A stretch of 63,493 nt of DNA, counting the filler, from Reticulomyxa filosa (taxonomy: Eukaryota > Protista > Foraminifera), in the NCBI GenBank assembly GCA_000512085.1. It is 13 parts of 13 records of this genome, joined end to end, with 100 filler letters (N's around TTAATTAATTAA, not from the genome) between each part and the next. Parts side by side here need not be neighbours in the genome. Positions count along the whole stretch, not along the records: positions 27,686 to 35,779 come from ASPP01022967.1; 12 more parts are not named here. One strand, 5' to 3'. Shown piece by piece: positions 27,686 through 60,203 of the stretch (the first letter of the stretch is position 1; each line of letters starts with the position of its first letter). Under the pieces are notes generated by a model. The model did no database searches. It was given only the letters and a program-made list of their open reading frames with translations, and had not been told where the DNA came from. The translations under genes were made by a program, and so were the position numbers.

Positions 27686-28368
27686 ATTGCATTGGAAGCG
27701 GAAATTGAAAAAGAGACGACGTTGGTGTATGATCAAATTTGCCCAACTCACTGAAGCGGCTTTGACTCCCGAAAACGTGTTGTTGACATTGATCCAAATT
27801 AAGCAAGTTCCACTCACTTTTTTTCTATCTCTATGCAACACTGCCCAAGAGATTGATTTTTACGCTGTTTTGTTTCTACCTCCCTCCATATCTAATCTTT
27901 TTTAATCTCTTTGCAAGAGACACTCCAGATTGGAAAATTCCATCTCCTTTCTGCAAAACGTATCGCCAGAAAAGAAGACTCGTGAAGCGTCGGTTCTCAG
28001 GCCACTGCTGACTCGGAAAAATTTTCAGGTTCATTGATCTTTTTTTTTTTTTTTGAGTCTTTATCTTTTTTAACAAAGAATAAATGCATGTTGTTTTTTT
28101 TTTTTGTAATGAAAAAAAAAAAAAAAAGTGGACGTGTGATCATGAGAAAAGATTTATACAGCCAACTCAAAAAATTTTCGGAGGTTGTAGATCGCACTGC
28201 ATTACATCCAGAATGGAGTCACATATTGAATCGCTTGCTGCGAGACTATAAAAGGTTCTTGTTTTGTTCATTTCGCTTACATTTCAGACAAAAACAAGCA
28301 AATAAATAAATAAAATGATAGAGCTAGCTTGGATTTGGAAGAAAAGGAGTTTGAAGAAAAATGAATAG
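27686..28368 (+). CDS. 3' exons of an unidentified gene (partial)
   Basis: Short GC-richer blocks (LTEAALTPENVLLTLIQIK; RKDLYSQLKKFSEVVDRTALHPEWSHILNRLLRDYK) separated by GT-AG AT-rich gaps. Confidence 0.4.
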
Positions 28369-28486
28369 GCAGAAAATGTATGTATACTCTTTGATTGAGA
28401 TGGATGAGTGATGAAGAAGTGTCAAGTGTTTGAAAATGATTTTTTTTTTAACAACATCTCAAAATTAAAGAGTTTATATGACATTG

Positions 28487-31400
28487 TCAGAATTTTCCAC
28501 CACGTTGTTCTACAAGTAATTTTTGTTGATATGTTAAACCTTCTGTATTTTTCCAAATACTATTCTTCATAAATAAACTAAAGTTTTGCATACCTACTCG
28601 CCAGATACATTTCATTTTACTACTCTCAGTTATTTCATTTATCTTACTATTTTCACAACCCCATAATCGTATTGTATTATCTCTTGAATACGATATCATT
28701 GTTGAATTATCTGGTGATAATTGTATACCTTCAATAGCTCCAGTATGTCCTTCTAATAATTGAATTTGTTGTCCTGAAGCTATATCCCATATTCGAATAG
28801 TATGATCGGATGAATAAGATATAATTTTTGAATAATCAGGTAAAAATTGCACACCAAGTACATCACCTGAATATCCCTCAAATACTCGAATTAGTTCTCC
28901 AGATAACACATCCCATAATTTCATTGTTGTATCTATCGAAGCAGATAATATTTTTGTATCATCTGGAGAAAATTTCATTCCATATTCTCTTGGGGAATGC
29001 CCTTTCAACAACAAAAGTTGTTTTCCAGATGATGTATCACATACATAAAGCATATAATCTGATGTGCAAAATACAATTTTTGATTCATCTGCTGAAATTC
29101 TAACACCACTTATAGAGACATTATCTCCTGATACATTCCATAATTGAAGTCGTTTTCCAGATAATACATCCCATAATCTAATTGTATTATCACCAGAATA
29201 AGATATAAGTTTGGAACCATTTGATGAAAATGTCACTCCACTTACATATTTTGAATGACCTTCTAACAATTGCACTTGTTTTCCAGATAATACATCCCAT
29301 ATTATAATTGTACCATTAGATGAATAAGATACAATTTTAGAATTATCAGGAGAAAATTGAATTTCATTGACTGGTTGCAAATGACCTTCTAATACATGAA
29401 GTTTTTTTCCAGATGATGCATCTAATATTTCAATTACACGATCATATGAACATGCAAGTTTAGACAGATCAAAGGAAAATCGTACATTAAACATATGGTC
29501 TATGTCCATTTCCAATGTTTGAATTAGTCTTCCTGATTGTACATCCCAAAATTGAATTTTTTTGTCTCTTGAACATGATACAATTTTGGAACCATTGAAT
29601 GAAAATTGTGCACATATTATAGTGCACAAGTGTTCATCTGTTAATTGAATTTTTCTTTCTAAAGCAGTATCCCATATTCGAATTATTCCATCTTTTGAAT
29701 ATGATAAAATTTTGGAATCTTTTGGAAAAAATTCCAAACTAGTCACCTGATCCGAATATCCTTCTATTATTTGAAGTTGTTTCCCGGATAATACATCCCA
29801 TATTCGAATTGTGGAATCATTTGAGCTAGATACAATTCTAGAACCATCAGGAGAAAACCTTGCTGCTGTTATATGCCATGTATGACCTTGTAATATTTGA
29901 ATTGGTTTTTCATTTAATAAATCCCATATTCGAATTATAGTATCCCATGAATATGACAATAACTTTGATTCATCTGGTGATAATTGTATCCCAACTATAT
30001 TTTGAGTGTGTGCTCCTTCCAACATTTGAATTTGTTGACCTGATAATACATCCCATATTCGAATGGTTCTATCCCATGAACATGATATAACTTTTGTTCC
30101 ATCGGATGTAATTTGCATTCCATCTATTTTTTCTAGATGTCCTTTCAATATATGAAGTTTCTCACCTGACAATGTATTGTGTATTTGAATTGTATTAGTT
30201 AAACATGCAGCGAATTTGGAACCATCAGGTAATAATTGTATTACTTTTGCACATTCTGAATATAATTCAATTATGTAGATTTGTTTTCCAGAGAATATAT
30301 CCCACAATCGAATTGTGCTGTCTTTTGAAGCGGATACAATCTTAGAGTCATCAGGTAATAATTGTATTGTTTCTATAGAAGCTGTATGCCCTTCCAATAT
30401 TTGAATTTGTTCACCTGATTCTATATTCCATATTCGAATTGTACTATCTGCTGAACATGACACAATTTTTGATTCATCAGAAAAAAAGTATGCAGCAGTT
30501 ACTGGTCGTTTATGTCCTTCTAATAATTGGATTTGTCTACTTGATAATATGTCCCATATACGAATATATTTCTCGTTTGACCATGATATGAGTGTTAATC
30601 CATCTTCTGAAAATCGAACACCCTTTACATTCTTTCCTTCTTCACCAAAGTATGCAAATTCTCCAAAGTAAATGTTATTCATCAGTGCATTTGTAAAATT
30701 TACTTTGTTTAAACATGTTTGATAAAAACTAACATTAGATAAATTAGCATTAGTAAAATTTGTTCCTTCAAAAAAAGCATGATCTAAAATTGCATGAGGA
30801 ATTTTGATATTATTCCAATTTCTATAATTCATGTTTATATTTGCTGAATTAAGTATTGTGATTGCATTTGCTGCTGCAATACTAACATTTTCATTATTTT
30901 TTGATGCTTCAATAATTCGAAATAATCTTGATTTTAAATTTGTATATATTGAATTTGTATCGTGAATTCTCTCAGCAATAAACTGAATAATCTCCAATTC
31001 TTCATTTAATAATTTAAAATTAATAGATAATTTTGCAATATCTACTTCAAATTGTTGTTGGAATTGTTGATTTGTAATATTACCAATAATATTTGGTTTC
31101 CATGAAATAATATCAAATATAATTTTTTGTGCTGCGTAATATTCTTGACATAATTTATGTAAAAATTGATATCTGTTATTACCAACTCTTCTTAATACAT
31201 ATTTAGCAATATTATCACCATCAAAATATTTTGCCCAAATATCTCTTTTATTTTCCATTAAAATATTCTCTATATCTTTTTTATTTTCATTTTCTATTTC
31301 TGGACCTAATTTACTTACAATTTCCTCTTCATTATTCTCAAATTCCGACTCAACTATAACCTGATTTCCTTCATAAAATATTTCAAAGCCTAAATCAAGA

Positions 31401-33965
31401 CAATATTGTTTTAGTGTAAATTTGATTTTATTGATATTCATTTGAATGCGTAATTCTGCCAATTTAGAAATAATATTTTGACAATGGATATCAATCCATT
31501 GATTAGTAAACACTTCATAAACTTGTGCTTTAGAAATCCTGCTTCCTATATCATATTGTTTTACCAATGATGGTAATACAGTTAAAATAAGTTGAAGGAG
31601 AAAAGGTTCTTCTATCATTTTTTGTAAATTTCGATAATTATTCAATGTTTCTTCATATTTTCGGGCTGTCCAGTCATCATTAGAATTATTGTTATTTTTA
31701 GATTTTATTTTTGCAAATTTTTCAATATAATAATGCATTTGTTGTTTTGTGAATGGCCATAAATATATCATTGATGTATTATTTCGATTTGTACCAATTA
31801 AATTAGTATTGATATCTTCATCATTTAATACATGACTTCGACAAGTAATAATTACTTTTGCATTCCATTGATTAAATTAAAACGGTTATAAAAATACTTA
31901 ACATTATTATTTTTATTATTTTTACTATATTTATCAAATATTTCATCAAAACCATCCATGATAAATACAAAAGATATTTTTTCACAAATTGCATTCATTA
32001 TTTCTTTATTAATATTTTTACTTTGTAATGTTTGTAAAATAATATCTTTTTCATTATTTTTGTTATAAACTTTAGGGAAAAAAATATAAACTGGCATTTC
32101 TTTTTTTGAATCTAACGTATAATTATTCCATAACATTTCTTCTAAATGACGACAAAATATGCTTTTTCCTGATCCTGATTTTCCTTGAATGGCCATTATT
32201 TTGTTTTCATTTTTCTTTTCTTCTTCTTTTCCTTTTTCTAGAAATTCAATCACATGTTGATAACCATCAAACGTATCGTTTTTTTCATTATCATCACCGT
32301 CTATATGTGGATAACGATTTGCTTGTAATGGAATATATGTTTCAAGTGCTTGTGAAATAGTTATATCTTCTTCCATTTCTTGCTTTCTTGATTCTTGTAA
32401 TAATAATGCAAAATCAGAACAACTTGCTGGATTTTTGTCTCCAATGATATATCTTTTATAATATTCATATAAAATTACATAAATAGCTTTTCCTTTTACT
32501 TTTTCTGGAGTGAAATTACAAAGTTGTTCATATACAAATTGTGCTATTTTTAATGATACAATACTATTGACTTCTAATTCACTTTTTTTTACCAATTGAG
32601 GTGCTTTCAATATCCCAATATCTAAATGTGATTTATAACGACCTACTAATTTTTGTATTCCTTTGTCATCAATCCATTCACAAATTACATCATTAATTTT
32701 AGTCAATGTTTCATCACTTGCTTGTTTTAAATCTTCTTCTTCTGGGTTATTAGGTTTCCATGCACGAATGTGTTCATAAAATAAATGACTTAATTTTGGA
32801 TTCTCTATTGAAGTGTATGCTGCCAATGTAGTATAATTTTTTAATGTTGCTTGCATTTCCACATATACATCATGTTTTGGAACATATAATTTAATATTAT
32901 GAAATCTATGATGTGTCTTTGATTGTCTTTCAAAAAAATTTTTATCTTCAGATACGATCAAATTAAATTGTTCCGCTTTCTTCATTACTGTCACTGCTGT
33001 TTGCAGTTTGATTTTGTTATCACACAAAATAGTAAATCTTCCAACATCAAATACTTGATTATAATCTCCTTTATAATCATGTTGAATCTTTTCCAATAAT
33101 CGCATACTATCTTTTACATTGGGTGGTTTTACAACTGTTATCAAATATTTTTGTAACTCAGACACTAAATTGATTATCTCATTGCTCATCATTGCTTTTT
33201 TACTTCGTGTAATTAAATCTTCCAAACTCGTTGCATGTTGTCTTATCTGTTCAGCTTTCAATTGATAAGATAATCCCGATTTAATTGGATAAAAACATTG
33301 ATAATGATTATCCTTCACAGAAGTTAAATTATTACTTGAACTGATGGAATGTTCTGAATTAAAAAGCATTGCCTTTACAATTGATGTGACAGTTGATTGT
33401 CTACAATCTGGACAACAATAGGATGTTTTATCCGCATGAAATGAGATATTCACAAAACCAAGACTCACCCATACCGGAAACTTTGCTTTTGAAGCTAAAC
33501 AATCTTGATTTGTACAATAACCTTGCAAATTAATCCCAGGATCAATGTGTCCAATCTCTGCCTTTTCATCTTCTTTTTGTAATTCTTCTGACTTCTGTTC
33601 CACTTCCATTGCGGTATTCTTCATGTTTGTATTTCCCAGTACAATAGAGTATGTATTGTTTGTGATAAAAAGAAAAAACATTCAACTTTATGTTCGATCT
33701 GTTCTGCAACATTTCGATTCATCAATGAATTTGTGATTTGTTCGATCACAACTGACATATTTCCGTCATTTTGTACGAGTTGTTTTCTCAACTCTTCTTC
33801 TTTAATCACGTCACCATATAATCTTATCAATGTTTTCATTTTTGCTTCATATTTCGCTGTTTTTAATTCGCTCTGCATACCTCCTATAAGTTTTATACGT
33901 TCGTTATAACTGTGGCTCAATGTTTTCGTATCAGCGTGAGCAAATACACGAAATATCTCTTGGGC
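28487..33965 (-). CDS. NLR-like STAND protein: CUE-like + Zn-ribbon + RelA/SpoT-like nucleotidyltransferase + NACHT + pentapeptide repeats + 16 WD40 repeats
   Basis: Walker A GKSGSGKS, Walker B FVFIMDGFDEI, VIITCRS, PFLL and YQFLHK..QEY motifs, pentapeptide tract AFFEGTNFTNANLSNVSF, and 16 countable WD40 units. One missing A at about 31872 joins ORFs 31852-33681 and 28487-31771. Further 5' exons may extend to about 34450. Confidence 0.9.
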
Positions 33966-35159
33966 CTAATCCAATAATATATTTCATATGTTCTTTTTGC
34001 TCAAAAACATGCACCTTTATCTAAACTTTAATAAATGAGCCGCTTTGCATTTTTGTTGAGACACGACTATTGATTTCAATATCGTCAGTATCGGGTGGTA
34101 GCACTGTTGGTTCACCGACAACTGTTTTTTTCGTTTACATATATATATAATTTTTCACTTCAAACAGTTATTTTTAGTTAAAAAAAAAGAGCTATATGTA
34201 TTGCAAACATGGTGGTGATGATTGCAAGTAGTAAATAAGATTGGGGTTTGCTCTTGAATTTAAAAAAGTTGTTCGCCGTATTCTTTTTCAAAAAAACTAT
34301 TGTGTATCGTCTGTATACAAGTTTTAATATAAAAGCGTTGACTATTTGTTATCTCCTTTAAATTAAAATTGTAAGTTTTTCATCGTTGCATACTTTTTTT
34401 TGATGAAACAAAATTAAATAATTACTTCATTGCTTGATGAGTAAGTCAATGACACAAAGATTATGTTCGCCACTCTTGTGTAAAAATATTTGAAATAATA
34501 TCATGTCCTTTATTGTTGCAATTATTTTAATGCGACTCTCTATTTGATAAATACTATTAAATTTTATAAATTGGCTGCTAAAAAGAAATGAATGCCCTTA
34601 AAATTTTAAGGATATTTGTTTTCTTCTTTTGCTTATGCGAATGGTAATCAACGTGCCAAATTGGTTTAATTGTAAAGCAGGATCAAGTACAAGAAGAAAA
34701 ACATAAATTTTGTTCATTAAAACATGAACAACAATTATAGCACAAGTGATATTTAAAAGACTGTAAATATTTAAAAATAAAGAGCCATTACAAAGATGCG
34801 GTGGTATTGAAACAAAAAACCATAAAAATGGAACAGAATTTCAAAAATAGCAAATGTGAAAAAAATTTGAAGAAATACAATATTGTATAACATTCAAAAT
34901 TACTTTGAACAAATGAAGTTTTGAGTTTTGAATGATAGGATGTCGTTAATATTTAATTTTTTACATGAGCTATTCAATATATTTTAAAACATAAGCAGCC
35001 ACGATTGAGTATTTACAGGTACATTTAATTACAATTTGTAAAATAAAAGTGAAACATGAGAAAGCAACATCTTTACTGTTAGTCTGAAAAAGGTGTCTCT
35101 TCTGAACTTTTTTTTTCCCAACAAAAAAAAACTTGAAATTATCATAATAATATTAAAAA

Positions 35160-35549
35160 ATGGTCGAGGCAGTTGTTACCTCAGTGCTTAATTCTGTACG
35201 TAAAATATCTCATCATATTATCTTTAACAAACTTGGCAAAAATAGCCAAGATGACGGCTGAACTTTAAAAAAACGACAATAAACGGGAATGTAATAGGTA
35301 TTGGGAACATATGTGAAAGAATTCGACAAATCAAATATTGATTTAAGTTTATGGCGAGGAGAAGCCAAATTAGCCAATGTGGAATTGAGACCAGATGCAT
35401 TAGATTTTCTGAACTTGCCATTGTCTATTCGATTGGGTTTTGTAGGGAAGATTGTAGTAGAAGCGGATTGGGCAAGATTATCATCAAAGCCCACACGAGT
35501 TGAATTGGAAGATTTGAGATTAGTGTGTGGTCCAAGATCAAAATTTAAA
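35160..35549 (+). CDS. VPS13: VPS13-family lipid-transfer protein, chorein-N domain (first two exons, 3'-truncated by contig end)
   Basis: MVEAVVTSVLNS|VLGTYVKEFDKSNIDLSLWRGEAKLANVELRPDALDFLNLPLSIRLGFVGKIVVEADWARLSSKPTRVELEDL is a classic chorein-N sequence. Intron at 35196-35297. Confidence 0.9.
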
Positions 35550-35879
35550 GTCAAAAAAAAAAAAAAAAAAAGCACAAAGCAAAATGTGACAATTGCATTG
35601 ATGTCATCATATTAATAATATGAAGATAGTTTTTGATAACTGTAATAAGTTGGTGATGACAGTAACAATAATGATAATAATGATGAAGATGTTGATCATT
35701 ATTGTTATTGTTATCACCTGTGTGTATGTGTGTGTATGTGTGTGTGTGTGTGTGTTTGCGTACATGAGTTTCTAATGTTNNNNNNNNNNNNNNNNNNNNN
35801 NNNNNNNNNNNNNNNNNNNNNNNTTAATTAATTAANNNNNNNNNNNNNNNNNNNNNNNNNNNNNNNNNNNNNNNNNNNN

Positions 35880-53286: not shown

Positions 53287-53394
53287 GGACAGTTTATGGC
53301 GGCTCCCAGAAGAAGCTGCGTGGAGAGGACGCGATAGTGCGAGTGTGGCAAATCAAGATAGGGTTGATACCAAGCGAATGCGAGGCGCCGCACA

Positions 53395-54000
53395 ATGGCC
53401 AGTAAGCGAGGAATTTTTTGCATAGAAACATCGCATTGGAACGACGGAGATGCAGAGCAACCATCCGTTGAGCGGCTCTTGGGTCTTATTGAGAGCACTC
53501 AGCGGGTGCCTTACATCCATCGGGATTTTTCAACAAAGGACGAACTTGAGTTTCTGTTAACTCAGGCTACGCAAAAGAAATACGATGCGTTTCCGATAAT
53601 ATATTTGGCGTCCCATGGCGGAGATAGGCGTCTTTGGGTTCGTAAGAAAGTGAATACGAATTTGGTTTCAAGCTTTATCGAACTAGAGGAAATCGCCAAC
53701 ATATTACGAGGTCGAGGTCGTAATAGGATTTTGTTCATCTCGGCGTGTGGCGTGATGAATTGCCATGCAAGCCATCTGAAAAAGTTCGTTAAGGACACTG
53801 GGGTGAAGGCACTTATTGGTTATCGGCGTGATGTTTCGTGGATCGAATCTGCTCAGTTGGAATTGGGTTTGCTTTCTGAACTAGCGAATCGCTCGAACGC
53901 GCATCTACAGTCGATAAGGGCAGCATTTCGATCTATTGGCGACGCGAATCGATCTCTGATTAAGAGTCTGCGGCTTCGATCGATGCCTGATCTTCTTTAG
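53395..54000 (+). CDS. Bacterial caspase/CHAT-fold (clan CD) putative Cys protease, DUF6642-like
   Basis: Intronless 201 aa with IIYLASHG (His-Gly) and ILFISAC (Cys) after beta-strands, then ALIGY..DVSW, the typical CHAT-like spacing. N-terminal IFCIE..W. Confidence 0.7.
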   Translation: MASKRGIFCIETSHWNDGDAEQPSVERLLGLIESTQRVPYIHRDFSTKDELEFLLTQATQKKYDAFPIIYLASHGGDRRLWVRKKVNTNLVSSFIELEEIANILRGRGRNRILFISACGVMNCHASHLKKFVKDTGVKALIGYRRDVSWIESAQLELGLLSELANRSNAHLQSIRAAFRSIGDANRSLIKSLRLRSMPDLL

Positions 54001-54050: not shown

Positions 54051-54734
54051 TCATGGTAGATTCGCGCCCACATCCGATACAGCACGCGCAAAAGCCCTGA
54101 GAGTCCAAAGAAGATCACGAAATAGCGTGCGATCAATAATGATGGGATCGCCTACAGCCCAGCGAGGTTGTTGAGCGTTTTCACCGGCATTTTTTAGTCG
54201 ATTGAACGCAGTTTGGTTCCAACTTGATAGCCCATGGGCAACCAAGTTTCTGACAGTAAATGCTCGCACCAGCTCAAGCTTGCCTCCATCAACATCTGCC
54301 CAAGTTCGGCCTTCGAGAGCAAGATACATTTGTCCCCATACTTCAACGCTCGTTGATCGTATGTAAGCTTCGGCTGCTTCATCGGCGGGCGCTACTGGAT
54401 TAAGGCTTGGGAAATTCCCCCTAGGGACCTGACGAACTCCGATCGCATGCTCGATCAAGTTTCTACCATGCTCCTCCACGAGGCCAGTGTAGCTTGAAAG
54501 AAGCATAGAATATAAACGGTGATGATCTTGTAATGCGGCTTGGTAATTGAGTAACGAGCAATGGAATTCAGTTACTCCAGTCGGATCTACGATTACAACG
54601 TTGGCGGGATCTGCAATATGTAGTGTAGTCCAGCGAGTGTGCTCAGCTGCTAACGCGGCTTCTGCGGCAATCCAGAATCTCGTTAGTTCTCCCCATTTGT
54701 CCCAAACCGGAAATCTTGTCCAAGGCATGTTCAT
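54051..54734 (-). CDS. Bacterial HEPN-superfamily protein (putative RNase)
   Basis: Intronless 227 aa, mostly helical, with an Rx4H motif VRNLVAHG near the C-terminus and an upstream helix carrying Glu (YTGLVEEH). Confidence 0.65.
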   Translation of the reverse strand: MNMPWTRFPVWDKWGELTRFWIAAEAALAAEHTRWTTLHIADPANVVIVDPTGVTEFHCSLLNYQAALQDHHRLYSMLLSSYTGLVEEHGRNLIEHAIGVRQVPRGNFPSLNPVAPADEAAEAYIRSTSVEVWGQMYLALEGRTWADVDGGKLELVRAFTVRNLVAHGLSSWNQTAFNRLKNAGENAQQPRWAVGDPIIIDRTLFRDLLWTLRAFARAVSDVGANLP

Positions 54735-54870
54735 GCTTTCGTTGATTGTCGATGCGTCGAAGTGTGCCCACAGGGGATCCTAGCGAGTGTGAGGTTCCAG
54801 ACAAGAATAGTATTCGCCTCGTGGTGCTCGCCTTTAGTCGCTCCCGGCGATGCCACTCAGGGTTTGATGG

Positions 54871-58406: not shown

Positions 58407-59103
58407 TAATATGTATGTCAATAGCTTCTTGTTTCAATTGCTCAATACTTTGTTCCAATAAATTGATATGCCGGAGCAACAAATCCAAATGCTTTTGCCC
58501 ATGAGATTGTATATGCTGTTGGTAATTGTGTGCATGCAATGACACATGACATCCAAACCTTTTGAAAGGACAAGATATTACAGACAGCAAACATGATGTC
58601 CTCAAATGCTTTTCCAACACATCAATTTGTCCTCGAAACTCACAAACGCGATTGCATTTGCTCTCATTTTTAATGTCTCCTTCTCTTTCCAAATATTCAG
58701 AGTTTGTGAACATTATACTCCCTTTTCTTGTCTTCTCTTCTTCCTTCTCCAACATATATTGTCTCGGACAAATTACCAACAGCTGACTGATCTGTTGTCG
58801 AGCAAACTTACTTTTCATGAAATGGCATCCCTCATGCATGTGCGTTGGACAATTGTCATTGTTGCTTTGTAAATAACGCTTCAAACACTCTTCTCCAATC
58901 ACCAATGGCTCATTTGTATCTTGATGCTGCTCACATGTCAATTCCATTGCCTTGTTGGCCACTTGGTGACATAACAAACAAATGCAATTTTTGAGCCGTT
59001 TTTCTGTGTTCGACGACACTACCCAGTCTTTGTTGAAACAATCCCCATTCGAGAAATTTTCAAGATTATATTCTTCTTCTCCTTCTATATTTAGGAAATA
59101 CAT
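58407..59103 (-). CDS. TRAF-like protein (divergent RING + TRAF/SIAH-type Zn fingers + coiled coil; 3'-truncated)
   Basis: CLLCHQVANKAMELTCEQH...GEECL...CP, ISQLLVICP, CEFRGQIDVLEKHLRTSC, CPFKRFGC and HLDLL. Confidence 0.82.
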
Positions 59104-60203
59104 TCTAATGGTGCTTTCTTTGGGTATGGGGGTTACGAAATCGCGTTAGTGACAGTTTTCCAAACTAAAAAAATTTAAACTCTAAAATTCAATGTTAAGA
59201 AAAATTGCCAAACTCAGTCGAGACCAAAAAAAATGGAGAAGTGTCACATTTGACAATTTGAACGTTTGCAACTTCGGAATGGCCAACTTTTTGAAGCAAG
59301 ATAATTTATTTAATTTTTTATGATTATGCTCTAATACAATGGAGCTGTTAATTACCTATTTTCCGCGTATCGAAGTTTCATCATACTTTTTTGAGAGAAT
59401 TGTTCAACTTCAGTCCTTTCATGAATAAATTTATTGCTCTTACCTTGGTTTCAACAAAAAAAAAAACTGCAACCACCGTCATTTCGTTAAAGATTCTAAA
59501 ATGAAGAATTATGAAAAAGATATCTTGAACGCGTTTAGATTGCAGCCTGATGAAGAGAATACGAAAATACTAAAAGGTAAGTCAACAATATCTACCAAAT
59601 GAACCGCAACAAAACGCATTTTTTTTTTTTTTTACTTCAAACAAGTAAATAACAGTTTTTTTTTATTTGCACAATTAAAGAGATATTTAGAAACGCCTTC
59701 ATTGGGACATGGTCAGAGTTAAAGAATGTAAGGAGTGAATGGATTTTAAAACAAAACGAGGCAACCAAAACGAAAAAACAAGTTGATGAAAATCGTAATG
59801 GGAACAGGTGCAACACTTTTCTTTGCTTCGGCAAATTCTAAAAAATAAAGTATAATGTTATGTTATGAAATAGATTTTTGTTATGCAATTGCTATTTTGG
59901 GAAAACGTTGAAACAACCATTGTCCACTGCAATAACAAAAACAGTAAGGAAGCAAAAATGTATTGAAAGCATCAGAACCGAATCAGATGCAAGCAATGGT
60001 CGTATCGATTTTCAGAGAAGAAAGCTCTATGGAGGAATGAACACTGATGGCAAATCAATTCCACAAACTGATGGACCACGCTTAGTTCATTTTTTTTTTT
60101 TTTNNNNNNNNNNNNNNNNNNNNNNNNNNNNNNNNNNNNNNNNNNNNTTAATTAATTAANNNNNNNNNNNNNNNNNNNNNNNNNNNNNNNNNNNNNNNNN
60201 NNN

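Follow-up and report, generated by a model that had tools for sequence, protein, structure and literature searches.

A predicted Tas1-type alarmone-synthetase domain in an expanded NACHT-WD40 protein family of the foraminifer Reticulomyxa filosa

Alarmone synthetases have already been predicted as effectors of NACHT-containing receptors in fungi and in bacteria. Fungal proteins that join RelA_SpoT, NACHT and WD40 parts are tabulated among the NOD-like receptors (NLRs), with a proposed function (PMC4986451, PMC12258605; here and throughout, published work is cited for the passages available). They are rare, amounting to less than 1% of annotations, and among 4613 Sordariales NLRs the T-NACHT form numbers 14 cases, or 82% of those with RelA_SpoT (PMC4986451; PMC12258605), and in the available part of a later fungal survey no N-terminal cluster matched RelA_SpoT well. 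Alarmone synthetases are also named among the predicted N-terminal effectors of bacterial NACHT anti-phage proteins (bioRxiv 10.1101/2022.07.19.500537). The enzyme itself is known as the C-terminal tip of secreted effectors, namely Pseudomonas aeruginosa Tas1/Apk1 (PDB 6OX6) and the Apk1-like exported synthetases (Apk2, SaEAS 8VX3, and DUF4157/extracellular contractile injection system (eCIS) forms), and as stand-alone or toxin-antitoxin proteins, namely the small alarmone synthetases RelQ and RelP and the toxic small alarmone synthetases CapRel, which is fused to a sensor, and FaRel2 (further sources: PMC11782079, PMC12222747, PMC12691689, 10.1101/2022.03.16.484565). Here we analyse a gene of the foraminifer Reticulomyxa filosa (assembly GCA_000512085.1) whose product combines a predicted Tas1-like synthetase domain with a NACHT module and a WD40 sensor. 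It occupies 28487-33965 of a 63,493-nucleotide (nt) stretch (the window) made of short contigs chained by N linkers, within the contig at about 27698-35779; all receptor coordinates below are on the minus strand. The locus is 100% identical, over the region searched, to the R. filosa database protein X6MD29_RETFI (1767 amino acids; P0057 hereafter), annotated as an NB-ARC domain protein and nothing more, which supports the rhizarian source proposed by an initial annotation of this sequence. The fungal precedent which that annotation had named, RelA_SpoT as a listed N-terminal domain of NLRs, is indeed tabulated (PMC4986451).

The synthetase-like domain lies at 32668-33258, and its RelA/SpoT-type residues are where the initial annotation had placed them, upstream of the NACHT P-loop, in an open reading frame (ORF) at 31852-33681 and ahead of Walker A. 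Tas1 was the sole PDB sequence match up to E 10 (E 0.017). A structure model based on 43 aligned sequences (predicted local distance difference test, pLDDT, 93.5) retrieved Tas1 first in Foldseek (E 1e-7), then RelP, RelQ, SaEAS, CapRel, Rel and SpoT; 44 matches reached E<=0.001, those listed were all enzymes of the RelA/SpoT homologue (RSH) group, and the values against Tas1, RelP, RelQ, Rel and SpoT ran from 1e-7 to 1e-3. The VIA structure search of 48,161 chains likewise placed RSH enzymes at all of ranks 1 to 8, headed by Tas1 (Z 12.6, root-mean-square deviation 3.5, 172 residues aligned), with CapRel at Z 10.3 and other nucleotidyltransferases at Z 8.1 and lower. For the modelled domain the RSH alarmone-synthetase fold is thus well supported. 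The raw jackhmmer list for Tas1 in PMC10083569 (Dataset S1) also holds X6MD29_RETFI, at E 1.2e-14 and among at least 118 R. filosa rows, which the available text passes without comment; there, the main text uses "eukaryot" once, concerning hydrolases. By the PDB match, Foldseek and this list, the domain groups in sequence and model with the Tas1/Apk-like exported-toxin clade and not with housekeeping RelA/SpoT, so that the RelA/SpoT identity first proposed holds for the fold and requires amendment for the clade. Neither a signal peptide nor an export domain is indicated: no hydrophobic segment was seen in P0057 or its paralogue P0058, nor any export domain among the Pfam matches listed.

The active-site residues follow the same pattern. 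Of the motif series read in the initial annotation, the basic K-R-K helix (K233, R237 and K241; codons 33112-14, 33100-02 and 33088-90), D..R (D255, 33046-48; R258, 33037-39), ExQ (E318, 32857-59; Q320, 32851-53) and H..Y (H342, 32785-87; Y345, 32776-78) are all present; it departs from that series in that Syn2 is of the Tas1 type, D-x-x-R-x-T, and that His301 stands at the G-loop Tyr site. When 103 homologues were mapped onto P0057 (denominators vary with coverage), all nine core positions were kept in 70 of the 77 that cover them. The two acidic residues reported as intact align to the Tas1 profile and are kept in 88/90 (D) and 87/89 (E) copies, with Q in 89/91; the basic helix is kept in 86/90 (K233), 82/88 (R237) and 87/88 (K241), and Syn2 in 86/89 (R258) and 86/88 (T260). 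Strongly conserved positions of the Tas1 profile (PMC10083569) matched were K, K, D, R, E, Q, H, Y and R. The domain is like Tas1/Apk1 and the Apk1-like exported synthetases in predicted fold, D-x-x-R-x-T, K..K basic helix, ExQ and H..Y..R helix, and differs from them in its N-terminal place in a NACHT-WD40 protein encoded by a eukaryotic nuclear gene, in the His at the G-loop Tyr site and in its additional cysteine and helical domains. RelQ, RelP, CapRel and FaRel2 share the fold (Z 10-12); FaRel2, unlike the R. filosa family, has D-x-x-G-x-R together with the G-loop Tyr, and the donor-phosphate counterparts of the basic helix are there K66, S70 and K74.

The sensor (WD40), switch (NACHT) and enzyme order of the initial annotation was borne out, although its inventory missed two parts: a four-cysteine beta domain and CUE/UBA-like helices, the latter in the first exon. 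The beta-sandwich domain (33256-33552; model pLDDT 91.9) precedes the synthetase and carries four cysteines that are near-invariant in the homologue alignment (82/83, 83/83, 81/81 and 81/81), likely a Zn site; it had no Pfam match and no fold match above background (best Z 5.8). In ciliates, similar domains come after ubiquitin-like domains. An all-helical domain (32347-32667, from the secondary structure of the model; no Pfam match) connects the synthetase to the NACHT module of the STAND (signal transduction ATPase with numerous domains) class, at 30860-32200 (Pfam NACHT, E 3.7e-8, 33.8 bits, above cut-off). This module, which also has helical and winged-helix parts, is split by a frameshift, and its Walker A (32161-32184), Walker B (31942-31959) and sensor-1 (31835-31855), located by motif position, are intact. 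Pentapeptide repeats follow (30659-30835; Pfam, E 6.7e-7), then the predicted sensor at 28655-30643, with Pfam WD40 matches in 12-13 stretches and some 16 repeats as estimated by length, likely forming two propellers, and a conserved C-terminal tail with the stop codon (28487-28654; median identity 59% in 27 homologues). As the sensor is WD40, with no leucine-rich repeats, the receptor is not an NLR in the strict sense.

P0057 belongs to a family of 104 clusters at 90% identity (55 + 49), a count that is approximate because the entries are gene models, often partial; 102 are named R. filosa and the two others are unnamed metagenomic proteins of 62% and 36% identity. In 42 of the 104, three or more WD motifs accompany both the synthetase motif and Walker A, and most of the others are without the later parts, many being annotated as partial. 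The synthetase is the best-conserved domain of the protein, with a median identity to P0057 of 78% (n=88), compared with 62% for the NACHT core (n=71) and 47% for WD40 (n=46), the last being partly depressed by repeat misregister; the Walker A Lys is retained in 78/78. This gene family is, with high probability, functional. The cysteine, synthetase and helical domains form a modular cassette. P0002 and P0010 each carry it in tandem, and in P0002 the first copy has lost some motif residues. In one further R. filosa model, P0043, the cysteine and synthetase cassette sits at the C-terminus behind a predicted signal peptide, a repeat ectodomain and one transmembrane helix, making this protein a candidate surface receptor.

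The sensor resembles that of Podospora HET-D and HET-E (HNWD), which also join NACHT to a double WD40 propeller. Across 457 in-register repeats of 48 proteins, columns 5, 23, 7, 4 and 8 were the most variable, as measured by entropy and not by the ratio of nonsynonymous to synonymous substitutions; their spacing fits the diversifying positions reported for HET-D/E (11, 12, 14 and 30) under an offset of register that we infer, and they fall on the predicted binding face. The differences are that the HET-D/E effector is a HET (TIR-like) domain and that the R. filosa repeats are less homogenised (median within-protein identity 54%). The roughly 100 NACHT-WD40 members are likely to be nonself receptors.

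A search of 1.84 billion representatives gave 51 matches, of which the real ones outside the family were two DUF4157/eCIS-type proteins and one TPR/ankyrin protein, and a profile search for long relatives returned 54 proteins, 53 from R. filosa and one, the third such, of eCIS type (probability 95.6); P0130 and P0134 were discarded as false matches driven by repeats. No related locus was found in the metagenome, viral or genome contigs searched, or by tblastn in plasmids or phages, and PADLOC and NCBIfam had no family for the synthetase domain. An Atlas look-up gave clusters that bear RelA_SpoT, at 0.94; because its recognition value fell short of the mark, it is a lead only. The dimer prediction for the synthetase-helical part (score 0.00) was uninformative, and the motif shuffle test (0/20,000), being post hoc, is given no weight. 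The published Tas1 list reaches further, with at least 190 algal or protist rows besides R. filosa: at least 166 under a stramenopile code, at least 20 under a general eukaryote code and at least 4 from dinoflagellates. Among them are Chrysochromulina proteins that carry the name WD40-repeat or Het-e, as well as a foraminifer, Elphidium; neither Fusarium nor Gaeumannomyces is among the matches listed (PMC10083569). The algal and Elphidium rows inspected retain the G-loop Tyr, and the His form therefore marks the R. filosa receptor family.

From the observed layout, family size and residue conservation, the predicted fold and, for the receptor steps, STAND biology, we propose, with a probability of about 0.42, that the N-terminal domain is a Tas1-type nucleotide pyrophosphokinase switched on by the triggered receptor, most likely making (p)ppApp with a drain on ATP. 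On top of the WD40 propellers, the variable face would bind a foreign or altered-self protein; the NACHT module would swap ADP for ATP and oligomerise, as in STAND proteins; and oligomerisation would free or cluster the synthetase. The enzyme would then take pyrophosphate from ATP and attach it to a purine nucleotide at the 3'-OH; the acceptor would most likely be an adenine nucleotide, giving (p)ppApp, and the drain on ATP could shut down or kill whichever part of the cytoplasmic network is affected. Such 3'-pyrophosphorylation is suggested by the Tas1 likeness and by the basic acceptor loop: basic residues abound in the G-loop region, and the acceptor patch is large and positive in nucleotide-making synthetases and small in the tRNA-targeting FaRel2. 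The nearest matches outside the family, bacterial-type DUF4157/eCIS effectors and a TPR/ankyrin protein, also favour this proposal.

Several observations weigh against it. Caution is called for above all by the acceptor site, which is at once what most sets the family apart: the G-loop Tyr, which stacks the acceptor base, is replaced by His in P0057 and in 80 of 94 copies, 12 copies have Tyr, and in FaRel2 the change of this Tyr to Phe impairs catalysis, so that the fold does not fix the chemistry. Nor can the product be read from clade kinship, because the Apk1-like clade also includes the ppGpp-only VpEAS and AaEAS and the promiscuous SaEAS. A later Lys and the C-terminal YY of the Tas1 profile are not retained; RelQ, at Z 11.7, ties with Tas1 in VIA (less than 1 Z unit); and the Pfam RelA_SpoT match (PF04607) of the P0057 copy (E 4.6e-4, 20.9 bits) lies below the gathering cut-off of 27, which the paralogues P0002 (30.2 bits) and P0046 (27.0 bits) reach. 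To these are added the frameshift of the P0057 copy in the assembly, the misregister and the entropy measure that qualify the WD40 figures, and the cassette on the predicted transmembrane protein P0043, which is no less compatible with signalling than with suicide.

The last point leads to the most serious of the other readings, a possible but rather doubtful one, in which the receptor logic is unchanged and the product is a second messenger, made at a low level and read by a downstream effector; it could be ppGpp, pGpp or some new pyrophosphorylated nucleotide that the His site favours. TIR domains similarly work for receptors at the surface and in the cytosol alike. Besides P0043, the His at the acceptor site and the ppGpp-specific enzymes within the Apk1-like clade would agree with such a role, and the abundance of Tas1-profile matches in algae and protists suggests a tolerated signalling family; yet the nearest bacterial-type relatives resemble secreted toxins, and P0043 is a single gene model. 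It is improbable that the domain instead pyrophosphorylates the RNA 3' end (tRNA CCA), as FaRel2 and CapRel do, and so blocks translation. CapRel is a structural neighbour and is itself sensor-fused, and the acceptor site is unlike that of nucleotide-making enzymes, but Tas1 outranks CapRel in both Foldseek and VIA and is the sole PDB sequence match, and the acceptor loop is basic by residue content where the FaRel2 patch is small. A nucleotide-binding or adaptor module whose catalysis is weak or lost, to which the loss of the G-loop Tyr, the sub-threshold Pfam score of P0057 and degenerate copies such as P0045 and the first P0002 cassette might point, seems slightly less probable still, given the near-complete retention of D, E, Q and the second Lys and the standing of the synthetase as the most conserved domain of the protein.

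A bolder and rather doubtful possibility is a foraminiferal immune pathway with one output cassette, taken from a bacterial Tas1-type toxin and common to some 100 cytosolic NACHT-WD40 sensors and one or more surface receptors. Its product would be a nucleotide pyrophosphorylated at the 3' position, perhaps a new one dictated by the His acceptor site, which would act as a eukaryotic death or alarm signal. If this were true, the role of the cassette would parallel that of TIR and cGAS-type enzymes.

Compared with the fungal RelA_SpoT NLRs, the three-part layout with a PF04607-type effector is the same, but those are rare and R. filosa has about 100 copies in one genome. No fungal protein was among the named family matches, in searches of limited reach, and neither Fusarium nor Gaeumannomyces was among the listed Tas1 rows; the effector-NACHT fusion of R. 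filosa may therefore well be independent of the fungal one. The bacterial NACHT anti-phage proteins have likewise predicted alarmone-synthetase effectors; R. filosa differs in its eukaryotic host and in a WD40 sensor with a pentapeptide spacer, and no close bacterial relative of its NACHT was found in the contig searches or by tblastn of plasmids and phages. What is new is that the effector is of the Tas1-type clade, that the family is so greatly expanded, that its acceptor site is altered and that the cassette is present on a predicted transmembrane protein as well. We found no description of the R. filosa family in the literature searched, from which subscription papers were mostly absent, and the supplement of 10.1101/2022.07.19.500537 may list such proteins. 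The passages of the sources list alarmone-synthetase NLR effectors in fungi and bacteria as predicted or proposed, and a wide Tas1-like family of protists and algae sits unremarked in a published match list. The models thus suggest that R. filosa likely has an undescribed defence output, and the family points to the nonself-receptor repertoire of a giant amoeboid protist. With many natural, conserved copies in one eukaryote, clear catalytic residues to mutate and a distinctive change at the acceptor site, an immune use of (p)ppApp-type nucleotides in eukaryotes becomes directly testable.

In the assembly the receptor gene is divided into two overlapping ORFs, 31852-33681 (609 codons), with the synthetase residues, Walker A and Walker B, and 28487-31876 (1129 codons), with the remaining NACHT, pentapeptide and WD40 repeats. 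Comparison with paralogues places a one-base frameshift in a short A run at 31872-31873, as the initial annotation had noticed; the intact paralogue P0058 aligns to the locus without loss, its residues 1-599 matching one frame and 597-1680 the frame that follows. The shift is probably a sequencing error, because a one-base lesion in an A run is typical of pyrosequencing, by which we assume this assembly was made, and the P0057 copy is probably intact in the organism. A recent loss-of-function change, making this copy a pseudogene of a functional family, is less likely and is a question separate from the chemistry. The position of the shift within NACHT and the truncated or shifted state of further family models, e.g. 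P0023, would fit such a decay, but apart from the shift both ORFs are open and every core residue is in place. The database model spans the shift by a 20-nt intron that deletes sensor-1, a motif kept in 59 of 62 family models; we therefore rejected this intron as a probable artefact of gene-finder rescue. Sensor-1 is also absent from P0074 and P0088, probably through similar rescue introns. A contig in two DNA-labelled "synthetic metagenome" runs of one study lacks precisely the 20 nt annotated as intron and is in all other respects identical to the window; we read it as simulated from gene models, a truly spliced form being the less likely source, and drew on it neither for the intron nor for the frameshift.

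The 5' part of the gene comprises, in the database model, a first exon of 64 amino acids (33687-33878), whose CUE/UBA-like helices match Pfam CUE at a level below its cut-off (E 0.032), and, in that model only, a GT-AG intron of 68 nt (33619-33686). The frame stays open upstream of this exon, to 33965. Among 28 paralogue models compared, a conserved GG stands right before the annotated Met (33879-33893, xxGG-MQ/MD/MS) and the sequence upstream of it varies; GGM is present in 19 of the 21 models with enough upstream sequence. The junction resembles that of polyubiquitin, and a cleavable ubiquitin-like pro-piece, with a longer true N-terminus, is therefore possible; the 11 models scanned gave no ubiquitin match in Pfam.

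Head to head with the receptor gene, the same contig carries a VPS13 N-terminal exon at 35298-35615 (+), so that the locus is eukaryotic; on this exon, the intron-bearing model and the roughly 100 R. filosa relatives, bacterial contamination was rejected. Elsewhere in the window, a short contig (53234-55068) holds compact bacterial-looking ORFs, one with DUF6642 at 53368-53997 (+) (E 7.6e-13) and an unassigned one of 242 amino acids at 54054-54779 (-), and likely derives from a contaminant or an associated bacterium. An ORF with a TRAF-type zinc finger lies at 58408-59145 (-).

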